From assembly GCA_001773575.1 (NCBI GenBank), contig MEXB01000009.1:7441-71440 (forward strand): DNA of 64,000 bases, given 5' to 3'. The notes under the pieces were generated by a model that saw nothing but the letters and a program-made list of their open reading frames with translations, searched no databases and was not told the origin of the DNA. The first letter of the stretch is position 1; the number at the start of each line of letters is the position of its first letter. This DNA comes from Candidatus Adlerbacteria bacterium RIFOXYC1_FULL_48_26 (GTDB lineage Bacteria > Patescibacteriota > Minisyncoccia > Phycocordibacterales > SBAW01). The position numbers and the translations under genes were made by a program. Below, piece by piece: positions 4,561 through 62,974 of this stretch.

Positions 4561-6156
4561 ATGGAACGCATTCTCAATTTCTTCCGTGCATTGCTCCGCC
4601 AGTCACGCACTCTGTGGCGGTGGAACAGCCGGAGGAGCACTCGTCGACTTCGGTCCACGATGCACTCGATGAACACGCTGGTGCGGTCAATGAGCACCAT
4701 CGCATCTGTGGCAGTCGCCACGGTTGGATGGGCCATCCTCATTTGGATGATCGCTCTTGCCGCACCTCTTGTAGCGGCAATCGTGGGGGCGTTGGTGACT
4801 GGTTTTACCATTCTCTTCTTCTTGCTCCCCTTCGTCCCCACCGCAATCGGGCTTGGGATTCAAAAGCCTGATCGGTATAGGCCGAAGAACGCTCCCGGTA
4901 TCACAACAACACGTGAGTATCCGCCATCAAAGTTCGGTTTCTTCATCTACCCTCATCCGGGCAGAGTGTTTGTAATCGAACGTGGCGGGCGGTTCGTTCG
5001 CGCCATGATGTCGTATCCGCATCGCATGTTCAGAGGCGAAATACGAAACCCGGATAACGATCCAGATGGACAAAGGTTCCTTCCTAACGAGCCTGAGTAC
5101 TGGGAGATCGTAAAAACGCCTGATGGCGAGCATGACACCCATCCACTGCCGTTCCCCTCCCCGGAGAACAGGCCGTGGTTCTGGATCTTCTACTCTCCCT
5201 TAAGCATCCTGTTTTGGATCTGGAAACGCTTCGTGTTCAAGGTTACCGGCGCTGCCTTCACAGGCATACCGCCGTTCCAAGGACCTCGCGTGTATCCAAT
5301 GGAGAGAAACGAAGAAATTACGTTGGAATCCGGCGAAACGGAGCTTGTACGAGTGGAAGACTACAGCAATCACTACCGGGTTGCGCACTTTCAATACCCG
5401 GTGAAGATTGCGAATGTCGACACTTACGACAAGATTCCCGTCAGGGTAATGCTCAACCTCGTCGCACATGTCTACAATCCGTTCATGACGGCCTACGAGA
5501 CTGACGACGACTGGACAACCCGTTTTAGCAACTTGGCAAAAGATGCTACAACCGGGTTCGCTCGGTCCAGGCCTCTAACCGAGGTCTGGACAGCAGCAAA
5601 GGGAAAAACGCGCGAGCTTGCGAAACGAGTGCGCGCGTTTGGACTTCTCGATACGTACAAGGAAGCGTTGCGCCAGGAGGTGCGCAATGGAACTAGTGAG
5701 GCTGAGCCAGGCGAAACGCCTGACACCGACGCAGAAAATCCTACTCGGAGCCAGAGTTTCACATGCGCCTTTGGCATCGTGATCGACAACGTCAACATTC
5801 TCGACATCTCGCCAATGGATCCGAAAGACACGGAAAAATTGGGAGATGTGGCTCGTGCGCAAGTTCGGATGGAAGCAGCACAACTGGACGCAAAAGGTGC
5901 CGTCGCCATCACCGAAGAAACCGCACGAATCATCAAGGAGAATGAGAATATGCTGCGCGACATTCCTCATGCTGCGCAGATCTTGGGGATGGAAACTAGT
6001 GTCCGTATCGCGCAAGCGGCCGGCACGGAAGGAAATCTTGTGTATATCACCGGTGGCACCAGCCAGGCAAGCGACCCAAACCAAGCGCTCGCCTTGCAAG
6101 AACTTCGGCGTCTCCGGCGGCAGAACAAGAGACTGACAAAAGAAAGCGAGGGATAA
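4561..6156 (+). CDS. Membrane-anchored SPFH/band-7 (stomatin/prohibitin/flotillin-like) domain protein
   Basis: 531 aa; Arg-rich N-terminus, two TM helices, then SPFH-like segments (VFVIERGGRFVRAM ... GIVIDNVNILDISPMDPKDTEKLGDVARAQVRMEAAQLDAKG) and C-terminal coiled-coil; GC visibly higher than neighbours. Confidence 0.55.
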   Translation: MERILNFFRALLRQSRTLWRWNSRRSTRRLRSTMHSMNTLVRSMSTIASVAVATVGWAILIWMIALAAPLVAAIVGALVTGFTILFFLLPFVPTAIGLGIQKPDRYRPKNAPGITTTREYPPSKFGFFIYPHPGRVFVIERGGRFVRAMMSYPHRMFRGEIRNPDNDPDGQRFLPNEPEYWEIVKTPDGEHDTHPLPFPSPENRPWFWIFYSPLSILFWIWKRFVFKVTGAAFTGIPPFQGPRVYPMERNEEITLESGETELVRVEDYSNHYRVAHFQYPVKIANVDTYDKIPVRVMLNLVAHVYNPFMTAYETDDDWTTRFSNLAKDATTGFARSRPLTEVWTAAKGKTRELAKRVRAFGLLDTYKEALRQEVRNGTSEAEPGETPDTDAENPTRSQSFTCAFGIVIDNVNILDISPMDPKDTEKLGDVARAQVRMEAAQLDAKGAVAITEETARIIKENENMLRDIPHAAQILGMETSVRIAQAAGTEGNLVYITGGTSQASDPNQALALQELRRLRRQNKRLTKESEG

Positions 6157-6159
6157 ACC

Positions 6160-7128
6160 ATGTACTGGGACATATTCCTCGGACTCGTAGGCCTTATCGT
6201 CGGTGTACCTCTCGCAGGTTTTCTGGCGTGGTGGCTACTGAAGCTTTTGCTTCTGCTACGGACCAAGCTTGGTCATGCAGAAGACCCAACACCTGAAACA
6301 CGGAGGCGGAGACGGCAACTGTTCCGAACAATCGCCATTGCGATTCTAGGGATTGCTGTTGTCATCACTGCCTTCTTGTATATACCGTGGGGCGCGATTC
6401 CCCACGATGAATCCAGAAGCTGGTCATCCTCTGGATGGCAGTGGCTGGAATACGCGTACGTTGCCTATGTACCAGCAGGGGTACGGAGTTTCATCCTTAC
6501 CTACATCTGGACATGGTGGTTTGCTATCGTTGTTGGCATTCTCTTCTTACTGGATCTACTCCGGCGAGGAAAGAAGGCCCAAGTGATAGCGCTTGTGGTT
6601 CTTGTGGCGGTTGGCTCAATAGCCTACTGGTTCGGGCCGGAACTTACGTGTGCCGACGACGACATTGTCTGCAAGGCCCAACATCTGCAACAAAAGCAGA
6701 TAAAGGCCGCCGAAGAGCTCCATAAGGAGCAAGAGCGGCAACGGCAGGCAGCGTTGGCCATCGAGCAAGCGAGAATCGCCACCCAAAAGCAGGTGGCGGA
6801 AGCGGCGGGAGGCGCTCAATGCCTCAACGTCGCTCACAAGGACCACCAGTTCGGGACAGCACCGGACGAATCGTCAATCATCAACCCGGACGGGAAATGT
6901 TTCTTCGCAAACTTTTACCCACCGGAAGATGAGGGTATCTGCTTTTACCAGCAGAGCGCCCATAGCTCGAAACCACACGGACCCTTCGGCAGAGATTGCC
7001 CTGGGGCCATACCGTTCAACCAGAACACAGCACCTCGAGATGTTGAACGCATCTGGGGAAACAAACCTTTCAAAGCGAACTTTGTTCTTCGCCCGCGCAG
7101 TGGCACAAACCACGGCACGAGCAACTAA
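6160..7128 (+). CDS. Hypothetical 4-TM membrane protein with coiled-coil linker and Cys-rich C-terminal domain
   Basis: 322 aa; starts 4 nt after stop of SPFH gene (operon); hydrophobic helices, Q/E/R-rich coiled-coil, C-terminal CxnC pairs. Confidence 0.6.
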   Translation: MYWDIFLGLVGLIVGVPLAGFLAWWLLKLLLLLRTKLGHAEDPTPETRRRRRQLFRTIAIAILGIAVVITAFLYIPWGAIPHDESRSWSSSGWQWLEYAYVAYVPAGVRSFILTYIWTWWFAIVVGILFLLDLLRRGKKAQVIALVVLVAVGSIAYWFGPELTCADDDIVCKAQHLQQKQIKAAEELHKEQERQRQAALAIEQARIATQKQVAEAAGGAQCLNVAHKDHQFGTAPDESSIINPDGKCFFANFYPPEDEGICFYQQSAHSSKPHGPFGRDCPGAIPFNQNTAPRDVERIWGNKPFKANFVLRPRSGTNHGTSN

Positions 7129-7136
7129 CACCAAAC

Positions 7137-7169
7137 GGCAGGACCACAAGTCCTGCCGTTTTTCTTTTT
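7137..7169. terminator. Rho-independent terminator (GGCAGGAC-loop-GTCCTGCC + T-run)
   Basis: 8-bp GC-rich stem 7137-7144/7150-7157 followed by TTTTTCTTTTT; sits between convergent gene sets. Confidence 0.75.
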
Positions 7170-7181
7170 GCATTTCTTAAT

Positions 7182-7430
7182 CTAGAACGAGTTTACTGTA
7201 TTTTGTATTACCGCAATAATGCCGAAGGCTGAGGCCATTACAAACATACCTACAATTCCCCACAGCATGTGATTTTTACCGTCCTCTTTCGCATGCTCAT
7301 CGCCTCGAATATTGAATTTGAAAAAGAATTCAGCGACACCAAATACAAACACCGCCAAACCCGCTGCAAACAAGAGCACAAGCAGCGGGTTGATGATGAC
7401 GGTATTGAGAGCCTGAACTAATTGCCCCAT
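7182..7430 (-). CDS. Small 2-TM membrane protein, signal-peptide-less paralog of the adjacent pilin-like proteins
   Basis: 82 aa; LLFAAGLAVFVFGVAEFFFKF...MLWGIVGMFVMASAFGII aligns with mature parts of neighbours. Confidence 0.5.
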   Translation of the reverse strand: MGQLVQALNTVIINPLLVLLFAAGLAVFVFGVAEFFFKFNIRGDEHAKEDGKNHMLWGIVGMFVMASAFGIIAVIQNTVNSF

Positions 7431-7786
7431 TACTGAGTTACGCGAGGTGCACGGAGAGCATCACCAGTGTTGTTGAAGTACTTGATACCAAGCGCTTCTG
7501 CACCGAACTGAAGAATACCGTAGAGGGTGATCATGACAAACAAAGATACGAGACCTGCGATCATGGTGTTTTTACCTGCAGCAGTGTCCTTTCCCTGACC
7601 CCAGATGTATTTAACCAAGCCCCAGAAGAACGCAATAATAGCGAGGACGATAAGGATAGGGATGATAAGGCGAAGGCCGTACCCTACTGAGCTTATCAAT
7701 TGAACAATGTTATTCAGCTGCTGCGCCGAAGCGATAAACGGTGTTAAAAGCAATAAAGCTGAACTTGCGACGTATATTTTCTTCAT
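7430..7786 (-). CDS. Secreted small membrane protein, TrbC/VirB2 pilin-like (2 hydrophobic helices after Sec signal peptide)
   Basis: 118 aa; signal peptide MKKIYVASSALLLLTPFIASA|QQ; motif AIIAFFWGLVKYI...GLVSLFVMITLYGIL. Confidence 0.6.
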   Translation of the reverse strand: MKKIYVASSALLLLTPFIASAQQLNNIVQLISSVGYGLRLIIPILIVLAIIAFFWGLVKYIWGQGKDTAAGKNTMIAGLVSLFVMITLYGILQFGAEALGIKYFNNTGDALRAPRVTQ

Positions 7787-59980: not shown

Positions 59981-60310
59981 CTAGCTTTCGTGATGATGAG
60001 CGTGTTTGTGATGCTGTGGGCCCTTGGTAAAAAGCTGGTCGAAGCGCAACTTTGCGAAACCAAACAAGTACACGATCTCCAAAATACCTAGGGTGTTAAT
60101 GAGGAGTATGGCGAGAAACCACCATGGCTGGCCATTGCGTGAGGCGTGCCATAGAGCCAAACCCTTCCATACCATTGACCAAAGCACCGCAATAAAGACC
60201 AGCCCACCAACTGCACCTACAGCGAGCGGAGCGTTAATAAACCAAGCCTGATTCATGCCCCAATCATGCGTATACATATATCGTAAGTATACAACGCTCT
60301 TATCCGTCAA
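59981..60310 (-). CDS. DUF5652-family small membrane protein
   Basis: ...VWKGLALWHASRNGQPWWF... characteristic; real start may be MNQAWF (60256). Confidence 0.5.
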   Translation of the reverse strand: MTDKSVVYLRYMYTHDWGMNQAWFINAPLAVGAVGGLVFIAVLWSMVWKGLALWHASRNGQPWWFLAILLINTLGILEIVYLFGFAKLRFDQLFTKGPQHHKHAHHHES

Positions 60311-60318
60311 CTATATAT

Positions 60319-61308
60319 ATGACACCATTTAAAAAAGGCCTCGTTTCTCTAGCAATTATCGGTAGCGTATTGGCTCCCGCATCTGGCGCGTTTGCCCAAA
60401 CGTATTCGACTATTTCAGCTCAGGTTGTTAATACCAACTGTCCAGTACTGAACTACGACCTCTACTACGGAATGGTCAATAGCGATGTCGTGGCGCTGCA
60501 ATCCTTCTTAGCTGTGCAAGGATACTTCCATTCAACCCCTATCGGTGTCTTTGGCCCACTGACATACCGCGCGGCACAGAACTTCCAAGCAGCTCACGGC
60601 ATTCCAGCAACTGGCTATGTTGGCCCACTTACACGTGCAGTGATCAACTCAATGCAGAACTGCAATAACCCTATGCCTCCAGTTCCGCCACCAACACCTG
60701 CGCCATTTATCCAGAACATTTCTCCATCATCTGGAACTGTGGGAACGAGTGTGACGCTTTCCGGCTACGGCTTCAGCAATAACAGCACTGTTGTGTTTGG
60801 TGGTAGCGGAATCTCAAACGTATATTCAAATGGCTCAAGTCTAACGTTTACTATTCCTGAATACACATCTGTATGTCCCCCAGGTGCATACTGCATTATG
60901 ATGGCGCGCCAGGTGACGCCAGGAACATACTCGATCTACGTTCAAAATCAAAACGGTACAAGTAACACAGTGAACTTTACTGTGACAAGCCAGGCAACGA
61001 CACAACCTCTTTCAATCACAGGTCTTGATGCGCCGGCAAGCGTACGTATTGGACAAGCAGCTACATGGACATTACGCACTAATGTAGAAAATTATGTTCC
61101 AGGTTCAACTCTTCGCTACTCAGTAACGTGGGGCGATGAAGGAGTCTATCCTACCTATGCATCGAACGCTTCTTCTCCAAACATACAAACAACTGCAAGC
61201 TTTACGCACACATATTTGATGGCTGGCACATATCGCCCAACCTTCACTGTCACAAACGACGCTGGGCAAACTGCCTCAGCAACTGCGACTGTGATTGTAG
61301 GGTATTAA
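60319..61308 (+). CDS. Secreted protein with peptidoglycan-binding (PG_binding_1-like) domain and Ig-like/PKD-like beta domains
   Basis: Signal peptide; DVVALQSFLAVQGYF...GPLTYRAAQNFQAAHGIPATGYVGPLT; Ser/Thr-rich beta modules. Confidence 0.6.
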   Translation: MTPFKKGLVSLAIIGSVLAPASGAFAQTYSTISAQVVNTNCPVLNYDLYYGMVNSDVVALQSFLAVQGYFHSTPIGVFGPLTYRAAQNFQAAHGIPATGYVGPLTRAVINSMQNCNNPMPPVPPPTPAPFIQNISPSSGTVGTSVTLSGYGFSNNSTVVFGGSGISNVYSNGSSLTFTIPEYTSVCPPGAYCIMMARQVTPGTYSIYVQNQNGTSNTVNFTVTSQATTQPLSITGLDAPASVRIGQAATWTLRTNVENYVPGSTLRYSVTWGDEGVYPTYASNASSPNIQTTASFTHTYLMAGTYRPTFTVTNDAGQTASATATVIVGY

Positions 61309-61349
61309 AAAGAAAAGACCCCTCACCGCACCGAAGTGCTAAGTGAGGG
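61306..61349. terminator. Rho-independent terminator (mainly for minus-strand mini-gene P3 / E1-E2 transcript)
   Basis: Plus AAAAAGAAAAGA-CCCCTCAC-loop-GTGAGGGG; the T-run lies on the minus-strand side. Confidence 0.7.
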
Positions 61350-61395
61350 GCTAGTTTAGGGAACCCACTCGTACGCGTACGCTACTGAAGCCGCG

Positions 61396-61575
61396 CTAGC
61401 CGAGCGTGGGATGGAAGCTGAGTTCGTTGCTCGGGTCGGTGCCACGCTCCTGCGCGCCACCGCTGCTGCTCGCCGAATGTGCGCCGGTGCCGCCGAGATG
61501 AGCCTGGACCTCAGCCGTCGTCATCACCGTCGCACCTTCACCCAAACGGGCCGTGAGGGCCGATTGCATATTCAT
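61396..61575 (-). CDS. GC3-rich mini-gene P3 (59 aa, Gly/Ser/Ala-rich, ends ...HPTLG)
   Basis: SD GGAGG 6 nt before ATG (MNMQ...); 80 nt downstream of E1-like gene with no terminator between; strong terminator after stop. Confidence 0.5.
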   Translation of the reverse strand: MNMQSALTARLGEGATVMTTAEVQAHLGGTGAHSASSSGGAQERGTDPSNELSFHPTLG

Positions 61576-61654
61576 AACCGTCCTCCGTTTGTACTCCGAC
61601 CATCTCAAGGATGGCCTTTCTAACAGTAGCAACCAGAACTAGCCCGTCAAGTGT

Positions 61655-62353
61655 TTACCACTGGAACGTCTGTACTTCGTGGGAAACCATGTCGACGCGC
61701 ATTTGATTGTTCAACAAATCATCCGCTCCACTGCGAATGGCATGGAAGCGCACCATCTCCCACACAGCATCGCTTGCTGCACGCACGACTGTCGTGGGGA
61801 TAGCGATATGCCCTCCGCACCCGCCAATAAGATTGTCTCCCTGCTCGTCGGGATACCAGTACCTTTCCCACTGCTCGATGTGAGAAGCGTTGTTAGGGTC
61901 GATGACATGCGTGATGATATGGGTCGCATCCATGCGCGTTTCGATGAACAGCGTTATCTGGTCGTTCTGCTTGATACAGCTTTCCCAGATACTCTTACGC
62001 GTTTTCATGCTATCGAGACACGCGAAGACTACGCCTGCAAGAGGCCTGTAGCCATCAACAAATTCCCGATGTTCATGAATTTGTGCACCTGTCCATTGCT
62101 CTGCGAGCCGGACAAGCGCCTCCGTTTTGTACATACCAACATGATTCATCCCATACACTTGGTTGGGAGGATTATGTGAGGCAACTGTATCGCCATCCCA
62201 CACATGAAGTTCGTTTTGATGACCGCATCCGAACCTGACTAGAAGTTCGGCGACACGGCCACCGATTCCGCCCACGCCGATCACATGGATTGGATCCTTG
62301 AACGTCGTGTGATCGAAGATGGCGTCATGGCGTCTGGTGTCATAAACCATCAC
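61655..62353 (-). CDS. E1-like ThiF/MoeB/HesA-family adenylyltransferase (ubiquitin-activating-enzyme fold)
   Basis: 232 aa; Rossmann HVIGVGGIGGRVAELLVRFG; DGDTVASHNPPNQ matching DxDxVexSNLNRQ; Cys-containing ACLDSMKTRK region. Confidence 0.8.
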   Translation of the reverse strand: MMVYDTRRHDAIFDHTTFKDPIHVIGVGGIGGRVAELLVRFGCGHQNELHVWDGDTVASHNPPNQVYGMNHVGMYKTEALVRLAEQWTGAQIHEHREFVDGYRPLAGVVFACLDSMKTRKSIWESCIKQNDQITLFIETRMDATHIITHVIDPNNASHIEQWERYWYPDEQGDNLIGGCGGHIAIPTTVVRAASDAVWEMVRFHAIRSGADDLLNNQMRVDMVSHEVQTFQW

Positions 62354-62974
62354 TTACTCCTGTATTTCATCCAAGGGCCATTTTTCAACAGTGGCACTTG
62401 GATATTGTCCCGGATTAGCGCTGAACACTGCGGCCAGCAAGATTCGACATGCCTCCAGCAAATTACCATCTGCAATGGCGGTTTTGATCTGCACAGCTCC
62501 GTCGGTCATACAGATGGCTCCATACTCACTTATATGAGGATGGTGGTATAGACCAGTTCCAAACTGCTCCATTCCGGTATCCTCCATTCCGGTCAACGGA
62601 GTAAGGTTCTGGAACGTATATTCTTTCATTTCTACATTGAGAGTAATGATGAACTCCCCAATCTTGCGCCACATTTTGTTATTGTCTTGCAAGCGCACGA
62701 GGTGCGTCCCCAAAAGCAACTCCCCTGCCGCAAAGTTGATAGCAACACACTGCAACTGAGGGTTACGGACAAGTTGAACGAAGTCATCAAATCCTTTTTT
62801 GAAGACCACCTCTTTCTCAGCATCATCCTTCACATGGGTTGAGCACAGCGTCGCAAACCCATTTCTAACGGTCTCATCGATTCCTACGGTTTCAACAATT
62901 TCCGGAACTGTGGGTTTTGCAGGATTTTCCGTGATGGAGTTCTTTCTTTTCCTCCAGCCGCTGAACACACTCAT
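62354..62974 (-). CDS. E2-like (UBC-fold) protein with HPN-type motif and candidate catalytic Cys
   Basis: 206 aa; YHHPHISEYGAICMTDG matches UBC HPNI-x3-G-x-IC-LD; abuts E1-like gene with no gap; N-terminal ~50-aa extension. Confidence 0.55.
   Translation of the reverse strand: MSVFSGWRKRKNSITENPAKPTVPEIVETVGIDETVRNGFATLCSTHVKDDAEKEVVFKKGFDDFVQLVRNPQLQCVAINFAAGELLLGTHLVRLQDNNKMWRKIGEFIITLNVEMKEYTFQNLTPLTGMEDTGMEQFGTGLYHHPHISEYGAICMTDGAVQIKTAIADGNLLEACRILLAAVFSANPGQYPSATVEKWPLDEIQE

Follow-up and report, generated by a model that had tools for sequence, protein, structure and literature searches.

A candidate three-gene E1/E2-type conjugation cassette with a glycine-ended, non-beta-grasp peptide in the modifier position of a Patescibacteria genome

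The 64,000-nucleotide stretch of contig MEXB01000009.1 (positions 7,441 to 71,440) from Candidatus Adlerbacteria bacterium RIFOXYC1_FULL_48_26, referred to here as the window, carries near its end a candidate protein conjugation cassette of ~1.6 kb, consisting of three minus-strand open reading frames (ORFs) that lie head to tail in the order E2-like, E1-like and P3, the last of which encodes a short peptide. The original prediction had placed the three ORFs at these same coordinates and had read them as a possibly minimal or divergent ubiquitin-like conjugation module with P3 as its conceivable modifier. We read the window as chromosomal DNA of a small-genome bacterium of the candidate phyla radiation (CPR) type, since it carries 11 tRNA genes and is syntenic, at ~75-79% nucleotide identity, with contigs of a Patescibacteria metagenome-assembled genome and of related metagenomes. 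The cassette is made up of the following features.

62354-62974, minus strand: gene for the E2-like (predicted UBC-fold) protein, 206 aa, seen as an ORF and by its sequence
61655-62353, minus strand: gene for the E1-like (ThiF-family) protein, 232 aa from GTG 62353, a single minimal adenylation domain
61576-61654, minus strand: spacer of 79 nt between the E1-like and P3 genes, with promoter-like hexamers, a hairpin and a Shine-Dalgarno sequence
61396-61575, minus strand: gene for P3, the candidate modifier peptide, 59 aa plus TAG, with the sequence MNMQSALTARLGEGATVMTTAEVQAHLGGTGAHSASSSGGAQERGTDPSNELSFHPTLG
61307-61350, minus strand: intrinsic terminator, a hairpin and T-run that closes the cassette

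An AGGAGG Shine-Dalgarno sequence lies directly upstream of the E2-like ATG (62974), and the stop codon of this gene, TAA (62356-62354), immediately adjoins GTG 62353, from which the original prediction had started the E1-like gene. The ORF from this GTG is present, but the true start is probably ATG 62350, which gives a protein of 231 aa and a 3-nt gap after the E2 stop; it is favored because AGGAG lies 6 nt upstream and because in the related locus L001 the E1 ortholog starts from the matching Met, again after a gap of 3 nt.

The E2-like protein, whose residues 1-33 are predicted to be disordered, carries at residues 142-159 the motif LYHHPHISEYGAICMTDG, in which His145-Pro146-His147 (62534-62542) is followed by the putative catalytic Cys155 (62510-62512). 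This motif and the Gly-rich loop, DxDxV-type and ACLDS motifs of the E1-like protein had all been quoted in the original prediction and all are present, with the E2 motif being HPH and not HPN. The protein gave no match in Pfam (E <=1), NCBIfam or PADLOC and is not matched by the curated E2 models UQ_con and Prok-E2_A to E; in its wider family, UQ_con was touched by only 3 of 70 members (best E 0.026). A word-indexed protein search found two relatives only and an exhaustive profile search 91 cluster representatives, across whose alignment G106, P146, C155 and W199 are invariant and T90, N123, H145, H147 and P200 near-invariant (H145 and H147 in at least 90%), giving the family signature GT...IGEFII...F-x-N-x-T...HPH-x7-C...WP. 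The AlphaFold2 (AF2) model of the protein (pLDDT 87.6, pTM 0.80) runs in the order helix, beta-meander, loop, helices, and the family profile returned, below threshold, almost only E2 enzymes from the sequences of the PDB, with its HPH-Cys aligned to the HPH-Cys of UBE2W. When the profile was compared by hhalign with UBE2D2 (P 1.8e-4), IGEFIITL was aligned with GGVFFLTI, HPH with HPN, and Cys155 with the catalytic Cys85. Foldseek of the model against the PDB ranked E2 enzymes likewise, with no significant match. The predicted fold, the conserved HPH-x7-C and the hhalign pairing support the view that this is a protein with the UBC fold and active site, as the original prediction had it, in a very divergent family. 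Between the window and L001 (5992-6588), it is encoded by the fastest-evolving gene of the region, with 57% amino acid identity and a pN/pS of 0.36 (88% and 0.12 for the E1-like gene), and it is the least conserved syntenic stretch, with 43-69% nucleotide identity per 120-nt window. Such rapid evolution would fit a role in target recognition and may reflect diversifying selection on a target-binding surface.

The adenylation domain expected of the E1-like protein is borne out by the Pfam model ThiF (PF00899), which matches residues 22-203 with 49 bits against a cut-off of 28.1 (E 5.8e-13). The Gly-rich loop GVGGIGG lies at 62258-62278, and HVIGVGGIGGRVAELL, DGDTVASHNPPNQ and ACLDSMKTRK are present as well; in a profile search of the PDB, the CLDSM segment was aligned with CTDNM of ThiF, and its Asp114 (62012-62014) with the Mg-binding Asp. 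Within the subfamily, the Gly loop, D53, N61, Q65, K76, D114, R119 and Cys179 (61817-61819) do not vary; Cys179 lies in a GCGG loop and is the candidate for the catalytic Cys of the crossover loop, the PDB alignments having covered the protein up to residue 130. CxxC zinc motifs are absent, as are separate Cys and UFD domains, and the sequence begins ~20 residues before the Gly loop, without an N-terminal peptide-clamp or RiPP recognition element (RRE) domain (RiPP, ribosomally synthesized and post-translationally modified peptide). Judged by its sequence, the E1-like protein is a bare adenylation domain. It lies far under every NCBIfam equivalog cut-off (ThiF, MoeB, PRTRC, 6A-MBL Cap2_3, TcdA and UbaA), the best match being ThiF with 45.5 against 159 bits, and a profile of ten close homologs matched ThiF, UBA5, PaaA, Uba1, MccB, BubCD and Cap2 in the PDB with values from 6.5e-11 to 1e-4 (PaaA 1.6e-8, MccB 5e-7, BubCD 2.5e-5). 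Since these matches to many E1 enzymes are similar and weak, the E1-like protein is no close member of any characterized E1 family. Identity with the PRTRC ThiF protein was rejected on its score (TIGR03736, 39.6 against a cut-off of 144.75 bits) and the lack of a ParB-like neighbor. The 'E1-E2' matches in PADLOC are weak (4e-11) and cover only the Gly-loop segment (residues 20-98), and no other PADLOC match was found among the five cassette and upstream-flank proteins scanned.

These data bear directly on the alternative, already raised in the original prediction, that the locus encodes an activation pair for a sulfur carrier, comparable to ThiF/MoeB with ThiS/MoaD; P3 would then receive a thiocarboxylate for use in making cofactors or thionucleosides. 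ThiF is the best match of the E1-like protein in both NCBIfam and the PDB sequences, but its NCBIfam score falls far short of the cut-off, the CxxC zinc site is missing, and no cassette has a rhodanese, cysteine desulfurase or ThiG/MoaE-type neighbor. Moreover, the conserved partner of the E1 is an E2-like protein, and P3 is not of the beta-grasp type and ends in a single Gly rather than GG. We regard this alternative as very improbable, and the E1-like protein was also not placed among the ThiF/MoeB enzymes proper, given its equivalog score, the absent CxxC zinc site and the lack of a GG-ended beta-grasp partner. Jumbo Xanthomonas/Erwinia phages (~227 kb) encode a 227-aa homolog of the minimal E1 annotated as 'thiamine biosynthesis protein'; the one in Xanthomonas phage PhiXhv-12 (L092, record 143445-144128) has 28% identity and an E of 2e-42 against the family hidden Markov model (HMM), and next to the phage gene lie small ORFs and a gene for a Cys-rich protein of 892 aa. 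A search of phages by HMM gave no E2-like gene or domain, including beside the L092 homolog.

The E1-like gene is followed, after the 79-nt spacer, by the P3 gene, with GGAGG (61586-61582) 6 nt before the ATG (61575) and a product that ends in ...HPTLG directly before the stop codon, with Gly59 as the last residue; spacer, Shine-Dalgarno sequence and Gly end are as originally described. If P3 were conjugated to a lysine, the remnant left there after digestion would be LSFHPTLG (GluC) or GTDPSNELSFHPTLG (trypsin). Gly, Ser, Ala, Thr and Pro make up 56% of the peptide, its position in the charge-hydropathy (Uversky) plot is borderline between order and disorder, and Pfam gave no match. The AF2 model, built on a shallow three-sequence alignment, has helices at residues 3-11 and 20-27 and a Gly/Ser-rich coil tail, with no strands (pLDDT 65). 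P3 has orthologs with 98% and 88% identity, one of them called by NCBI as a hypothetical protein, and positional homologs in L008, L011, L077, L080, L083 and L013. In every lineage the peptide gene has an ATG, a strong GGAGG or AGGAG Shine-Dalgarno sequence and a terminator of its own. Substitutions in the peptide genes fall mostly on the third codon position (5/2/9 by position for the window and L001, 18/18/34 for L011 and L077), and of the seven peptide pairs compared, the four closest have a pN/pS of 0.08-0.44. On these comparisons P3 is a real protein-coding gene. A structured RNA was considered and rejected, there being no Rfam match (E <=1), a folding z of +0.88 against shuffles, and substitutions that follow codon positions.

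The expression signals of the peptide gene are conspicuous. The terminator, CCCCUCAC...GUGAGGGG and then UCUUUUCUUUUU, is as strong as had been proposed, folding at -24.2 kcal/mol (z = -5.45), a stability that none of 200 shuffled sequences reached; a pattern scan missed it owing to its long loop, and the two weak in-gene sites reported by that scan were disregarded. An equivalent hairpin and T-run lies 3' of the peptide gene in 8 of 8 lineages. The spacer contains TTGACG (61650-61645) and, after a 16-nt gap, TACTGT (61628-61623), both identical in L001 with a differing sequence between them, and just before the Shine-Dalgarno sequence a hairpin GGCCATC/GATGGTC (61616-61598) that is kept in L001 with a G-U change. 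A consensus promoter scan did not report the hexamers. TTGAC motifs and/or a hairpin 5' of the Shine-Dalgarno sequence are seen again in other lineages, and in L080 a terminator-like hairpin lies right after the E1 gene. P3 may have a putative promoter of its own in the spacer and may be transcribed separately from, and more strongly than, the enzymes. The P3 gene is 66% GC, with 75% GC at third codon positions (GC3), against 48% in the genome, and in every lineage the peptide genes are 64-67% GC (GC3 68-80%) in genomes of 46-59% GC. When the window is compared with L001, the synonymous divergence of P3 (0.18) is 3-4 times below that of neighboring genes (0.56-0.72; binomial P ~7e-8), and it drops steadily along the E1 gene towards P3 (0.77, 0.59, 0.43 and 0.44; L001 region 6592-7544). 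This pattern could come from codon selection towards very high expression, from a constraint at the RNA level or from a recombination tract. The high GC3, low synonymous divergence, promoter-like motif and 5' hairpin would be in keeping with a stoichiometric substrate that is produced in larger amounts than the enzymes acting on it. Over the peptide gene, the annotations of L010 (8785-9063), L012 (8785-9063) and L008 (8731-9006) show an antisense ORF of 91-92 aa; because gene callers often overlook the peptide or choose this ORF instead, as in several public assemblies, the peptide family is systematically under-annotated and the number of such systems is likely to be underestimated.

The relation between the three genes becomes clearer from related loci. 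Scans seeded with the E1 gave 61 loci from species-representative genomes and 18 from metagenomes, with 73 distinct E1 loci, and an E2-like domain is also present in 39 of the 73. The loci with both are found in Saccharibacteria, Paceibacteria-like and other Patescibacteria, Melainabacteria/Obscuribacter, Planktothrix (cyanobacteria) and Gammaproteobacteria. Co-occurrence across phyla therefore points to a conserved functional unit rather than chance adjacency, and together with the E2/E1/peptide gene order, which was found again in eight distinct lineages, it supports the minimal or divergent E1/E2 module of the original prediction. In most relatives the gene directly after the E1 encodes a protein of 70-100 aa with a beta-grasp-like sequence, that is, a ubiquitin-like protein (Ubl), the beta-grasp assignment coming from only weak ThiS or Ub-Mut7C Pfam matches. 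These Ubls end in ...LRNG, ...KVANG, ...KVKNG, ...VKGA or ...VKGQ, with Gly at the end or within 1-3 residues of it. Those of the mostly Saccharibacteria sister loci (L042 5650-5886, L040, L048, L037, L087 and L035 5729-5941), only one of which has a weak ThiS match, end in ...NG, ...NGA, ...NGL or ...KGQ, and Asn-Gly seems to be the usual modifier end in the family. A further set of loci with the same E1 family (L028 1253-8065, also L014, L023, L029 and L030; Melainabacteria/Obscuribacter, Planktothrix and Falkowbacteria) has larger operons with one or two proteins of 280-1281 aa that end in an HPH-Cys E2-like domain, a ~350-aa protein and, in L028, a ClpA/ClpB-type double AAA+ ATPase downstream of the E1; the non-ATPase parts match no Pfam family.

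In the compact cassettes, an E2 gene of ~180-206 aa is followed directly by the E1 gene and the slot of the Ubl holds a peptide of 50-59 aa. The peptide ends in ...FHPTLG in the window, L001 and L007, ...HRPSLG in L008, ...ARPSLG in L011, ...AKPDLG in L077, ...PRPQNG in L080, ...QVRLG in L083 and ...RKVDLA in L013; the C-terminal residue is Gly in 7 of the 8 peptide lineages. The L013 peptide (Saccharibacteria, about 5750-5917), MSTMESKMAALNLSAVSVNNLGGGRSASSPGSGTGGSTRLDAGPKSGPLRKVDLA, is clearly related to the others. Overall the peptides are only 20-35% identical; what they have kept is a helical motif at the N-terminus, a middle part rich in Gly and Ser, and a small residue at the C-terminus. 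The E1 proteins of the peptide type form one clade in a neighbor-joining tree, which suggests a single replacement of the Ubl by the peptide. What had been a bare guess in the original prediction, that P3 is the modifier, is hence supported by comparison: a Gly-ended, once Ala-ended, peptide occupies the Ubl slot of the sister cassettes.

The same comparison allows two further explanations to be weighed. The E1 and E2 could be a real conjugation pair that acts on the C-terminus of another protein, in which case P3 would have a regulatory, inhibitory or decoy role or be a small protein unconnected with the pair. A precedent exists in the Cap2 E1/E2 of type II CBASS, which acts on the non-Ubl tail of the CD-NTase (PMC11601596), and both the lack of a ubiquitin fold in P3 and the one Ala-ended homolog would agree with it. 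On the other hand, no other gene is conserved with the E1/E2 pair across the compact cassettes, while the peptide sits exactly in the Ubl position of the relatives and has kept its small C-terminal residue across eight lineages despite such low identity, and we consider this explanation unlikely. Alternatively, P3 could be a RiPP precursor whose C-terminus is adenylated by the E1-like protein, as with MccB (microcin C7) and PaaA (pantocin A), with the E2-like protein tailoring or carrying it and a small modified peptide as product. P3 is short, with a helical, 'leader-like' N-terminal half and a conserved C-terminal motif, its gene has strong expression signals of its own, and the PDB search with the E1 profile matched both PaaA and MccB. 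Against this, the E1 lacks the N-terminal peptide-clamp or RRE domain, its partner has the HPH-Cys transfer site of UBC proteins, genes for an exporter, a leader peptidase or immunity are absent from the cassettes and their vicinity, and beta-grasp-like Ubls fill the same slot in sister cassettes of the same E1 and E2 families. A RiPP pathway is therefore quite unlikely in our judgment.

We propose instead that the locus is a self-contained three-gene conjugation cassette in which P3 is the modifier, adenylated by the E1, passed to Cys155 of the E2 and ligated to targets, and we consider this probable, though by no means assured. It draws on the folds and families of the two enzymes, their conserved catalytic residues, their linkage and the small C-terminal residue of a peptide in the Ubl slot, and from these we infer each chemical step and the nature of the target. 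Specifically, abundant P3 would bind the minimal, presumably homodimeric E1, which would adenylate the carboxylate of Gly59 in an ATP-dependent reaction. The acyl group may then pass via Cys179 of the E1 and would arrive as a P3 thioester on Cys155 of the UBC-fold E2, whose HPH-Cys site would catalyze aminolysis onto a target amine, most likely a lysine. No E3 being encoded, the E2 itself would recognize the targets. We also put forward, giving it an even chance, the broader hypothesis that a free-standing, largely disordered, non-beta-grasp peptide of 50-59 residues serves as modifier in a ubiquitin-type E1-to-E2 thioester cascade, that this arose once by replacement of the Ubl inside a seemingly undescribed E1/E2/Ubl family, and that ultra-small Patescibacteria genomes have thereby retained what is perhaps the smallest complete system for protein conjugation known.

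Several observations weigh against the proposed conjugation cassette. By its model, P3 is not a beta-grasp or ubiquitin fold, and E1/E2 pairs are not known to use a free-standing modifier of any non-beta-grasp kind. The eighth peptide lineage, L013, ends in Ala, and in the E1 the Arg of the NxxRQ phosphate-binding motif is replaced by Asn. No deconjugating peptidase, E3 or candidate target is conserved beside the compact cassettes, and the surroundings of the cassette resemble housekeeping DNA and not a defense island. The biological role is likewise a matter of inference, and antiphage or stress-linked tagging is our leading guess, by analogy with Bil and CBASS (and also Bub).

With regard to the neighboring genes, the 146-aa ORF upstream of the cassette represents the 3' part of a longer gene that extends beyond the window, as had been noted, and its L001 ortholog has 304 aa and an MliC domain; the assignment of the other upstream neighbor as YggT-like is weak (E 0.016, under the Pfam cut-off). 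The gene at 60319-61308 is convergent with the cassette and its stop codon adjoins the cassette terminator. This gene and the one at 59981-60310 encode a secreted PG_binding_1 protein (plus TIG/PKD) and a DUF5652 membrane protein, respectively, and such genes are also near the cassette in the more distant L008 (6582-7241, 11085-11315), while in L011 they are not, type IV pilus-like genes preceding the cassette instead. The neighbor genes thus vary by lineage, PG-binding and DUF5652 genes in some and pilus genes in another, and the sharing may be coincidence, such genes being common in these genomes. As originally stated, no JAB peptidase or deubiquitinase (DUB) gene is seen, a negative that covers the genes flanking this cassette and its relatives, the full 64 kb not having been scanned.

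E1/E2-type conjugation in bacteria is known as a concept; what appears to be undescribed is this particular E2 family, the clade of minimal E1 proteins and, most of all, a modifier slot filled by a peptide without the beta-grasp fold. Literature searches of incomplete coverage found no description of the cassette or of ubiquitin-like systems in Patescibacteria/CPR, which is weak evidence of novelty; the sister cassettes, with no Pfam models and no paper found in that same literature, appear to be undescribed as well. The cassette points to a larger E1/E2/Ubl family that lacks models in Pfam, NCBIfam and PADLOC and is spread over Saccharibacteria, Melainabacteria, cyanobacteria and Gammaproteobacteria; giant E2 fusions and a ClpB-like ATPase are seen in some of its members. 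Conjugation of P3 would mean that E1/E2 tagging can do without the ubiquitin fold even when the modifier has a gene of its own, and this would bear on the evolution of Ubl recognition by E1 enzymes. The very small, self-contained cassette should be easy to reconstitute and could become a compact ligation tool.

Among known systems, the antiphage ones named in the original prediction (CBASS, Bil and Bub) stand as analogies but not as families to which the cassette belongs. Bil of Types I and II consists of the Ubl BilA, the E2 BilB, the JAB peptidase BilC and the E1 BilD. The cassette resembles it in that the E1 and E2 are encoded separately within a single operon, together with a small, Gly-ended candidate modifier. 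It differs in that its E1 is a single adenylation domain of ~230 aa and not the IAD-AAD-CYS protein of Bil, in that no JAB peptidase is found among the neighbors here or in the related cassettes, and in that the candidate modifier is a 59-aa helical or disordered peptide instead of a beta-grasp protein, with an E2 that matches no curated model. As we propose for the cassette, the Cys-based E2 of Bil is thought to choose its targets itself, without an E3 (PMC11601596). For want of the JAB peptidase BilC and a multidomain E1, we did not assign the cassette to Bil. Cap2 of CBASS offers another likeness, E1/E2 chemistry on a flexible C-terminal tail that is not of the ubiquitin fold (as we propose for P3). 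Here, however, CD-NTase, effector and Cap3 are all lacking, the E1 and E2 are two proteins whereas Cap2 is an E1-E2 fusion, and the substrate would be a free-standing peptide in place of an enzyme's tail; type II CBASS was rejected for lack of the CD-NTase and Cap2 fusion, the PADLOC matches being confined to the Gly-loop segment of the E1. With Bub (6E/DUF6527) the cassette shares an operon of a diverged bacterial E1, an E2 and a Ubl without an E3, and BubCD was one of the PDB matches of the E1. The chemistry of Bub proceeds via Ser/Tyr oxyesters without catalytic cysteines, and its operons encode a DUF6527 serine protease (PMC11601596). Membership of Bub was rejected, as Cys155 of the E2 and Cys179 of the E1 are invariant and there is no DUF6527 match.

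There is also a likeness to the sister cassettes of Saccharibacteria, Melainabacteria/Obscuribacter and Gammaproteobacteria (L023, L028, L035, L040, L042 and L048), which have the same E1 subfamily, an HPH-Cys E2-like domain and a modifier gene directly after the E1. Their modifiers differ in being beta-grasp-like Ubls of 70-100 aa that end in NG, GA or GN, the E2-like domain often sits at the C-terminal end of a larger protein (280-1280 aa), and some add a ~350-aa protein and a ClpB-like AAA+ ATPase. The MccB-MccA and PaaA-PaaP pairs likewise combine a ThiF-family enzyme with a short gene-encoded peptide that is activated in its C-terminal region. MccB and PaaA have an N-terminal peptide-binding domain and no E2 partner, and their products are antibiotics secreted via exporters; neither the peptide-binding domain nor the exporters are present here. 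Finally, Pup/UBact is a largely disordered bacterial tag of ~60 residues with its reactive group at the C-terminus, ligated through the side chain of a C-terminal Glu by a glutamine-synthetase-like ligase (PafA) and without E1 or E2, whereas the route proposed for P3 uses an E1/E2 pair on the alpha-carboxylate of Gly. P3 has no sequence similarity to Pup, its search having returned only its own orthologs. If our proposal is true, the cassette would join two bacterial tagging logics, the disordered Pup and the beta-grasp Ubl with E1/E2, as a Pup-like tag handled by ubiquitin chemistry.

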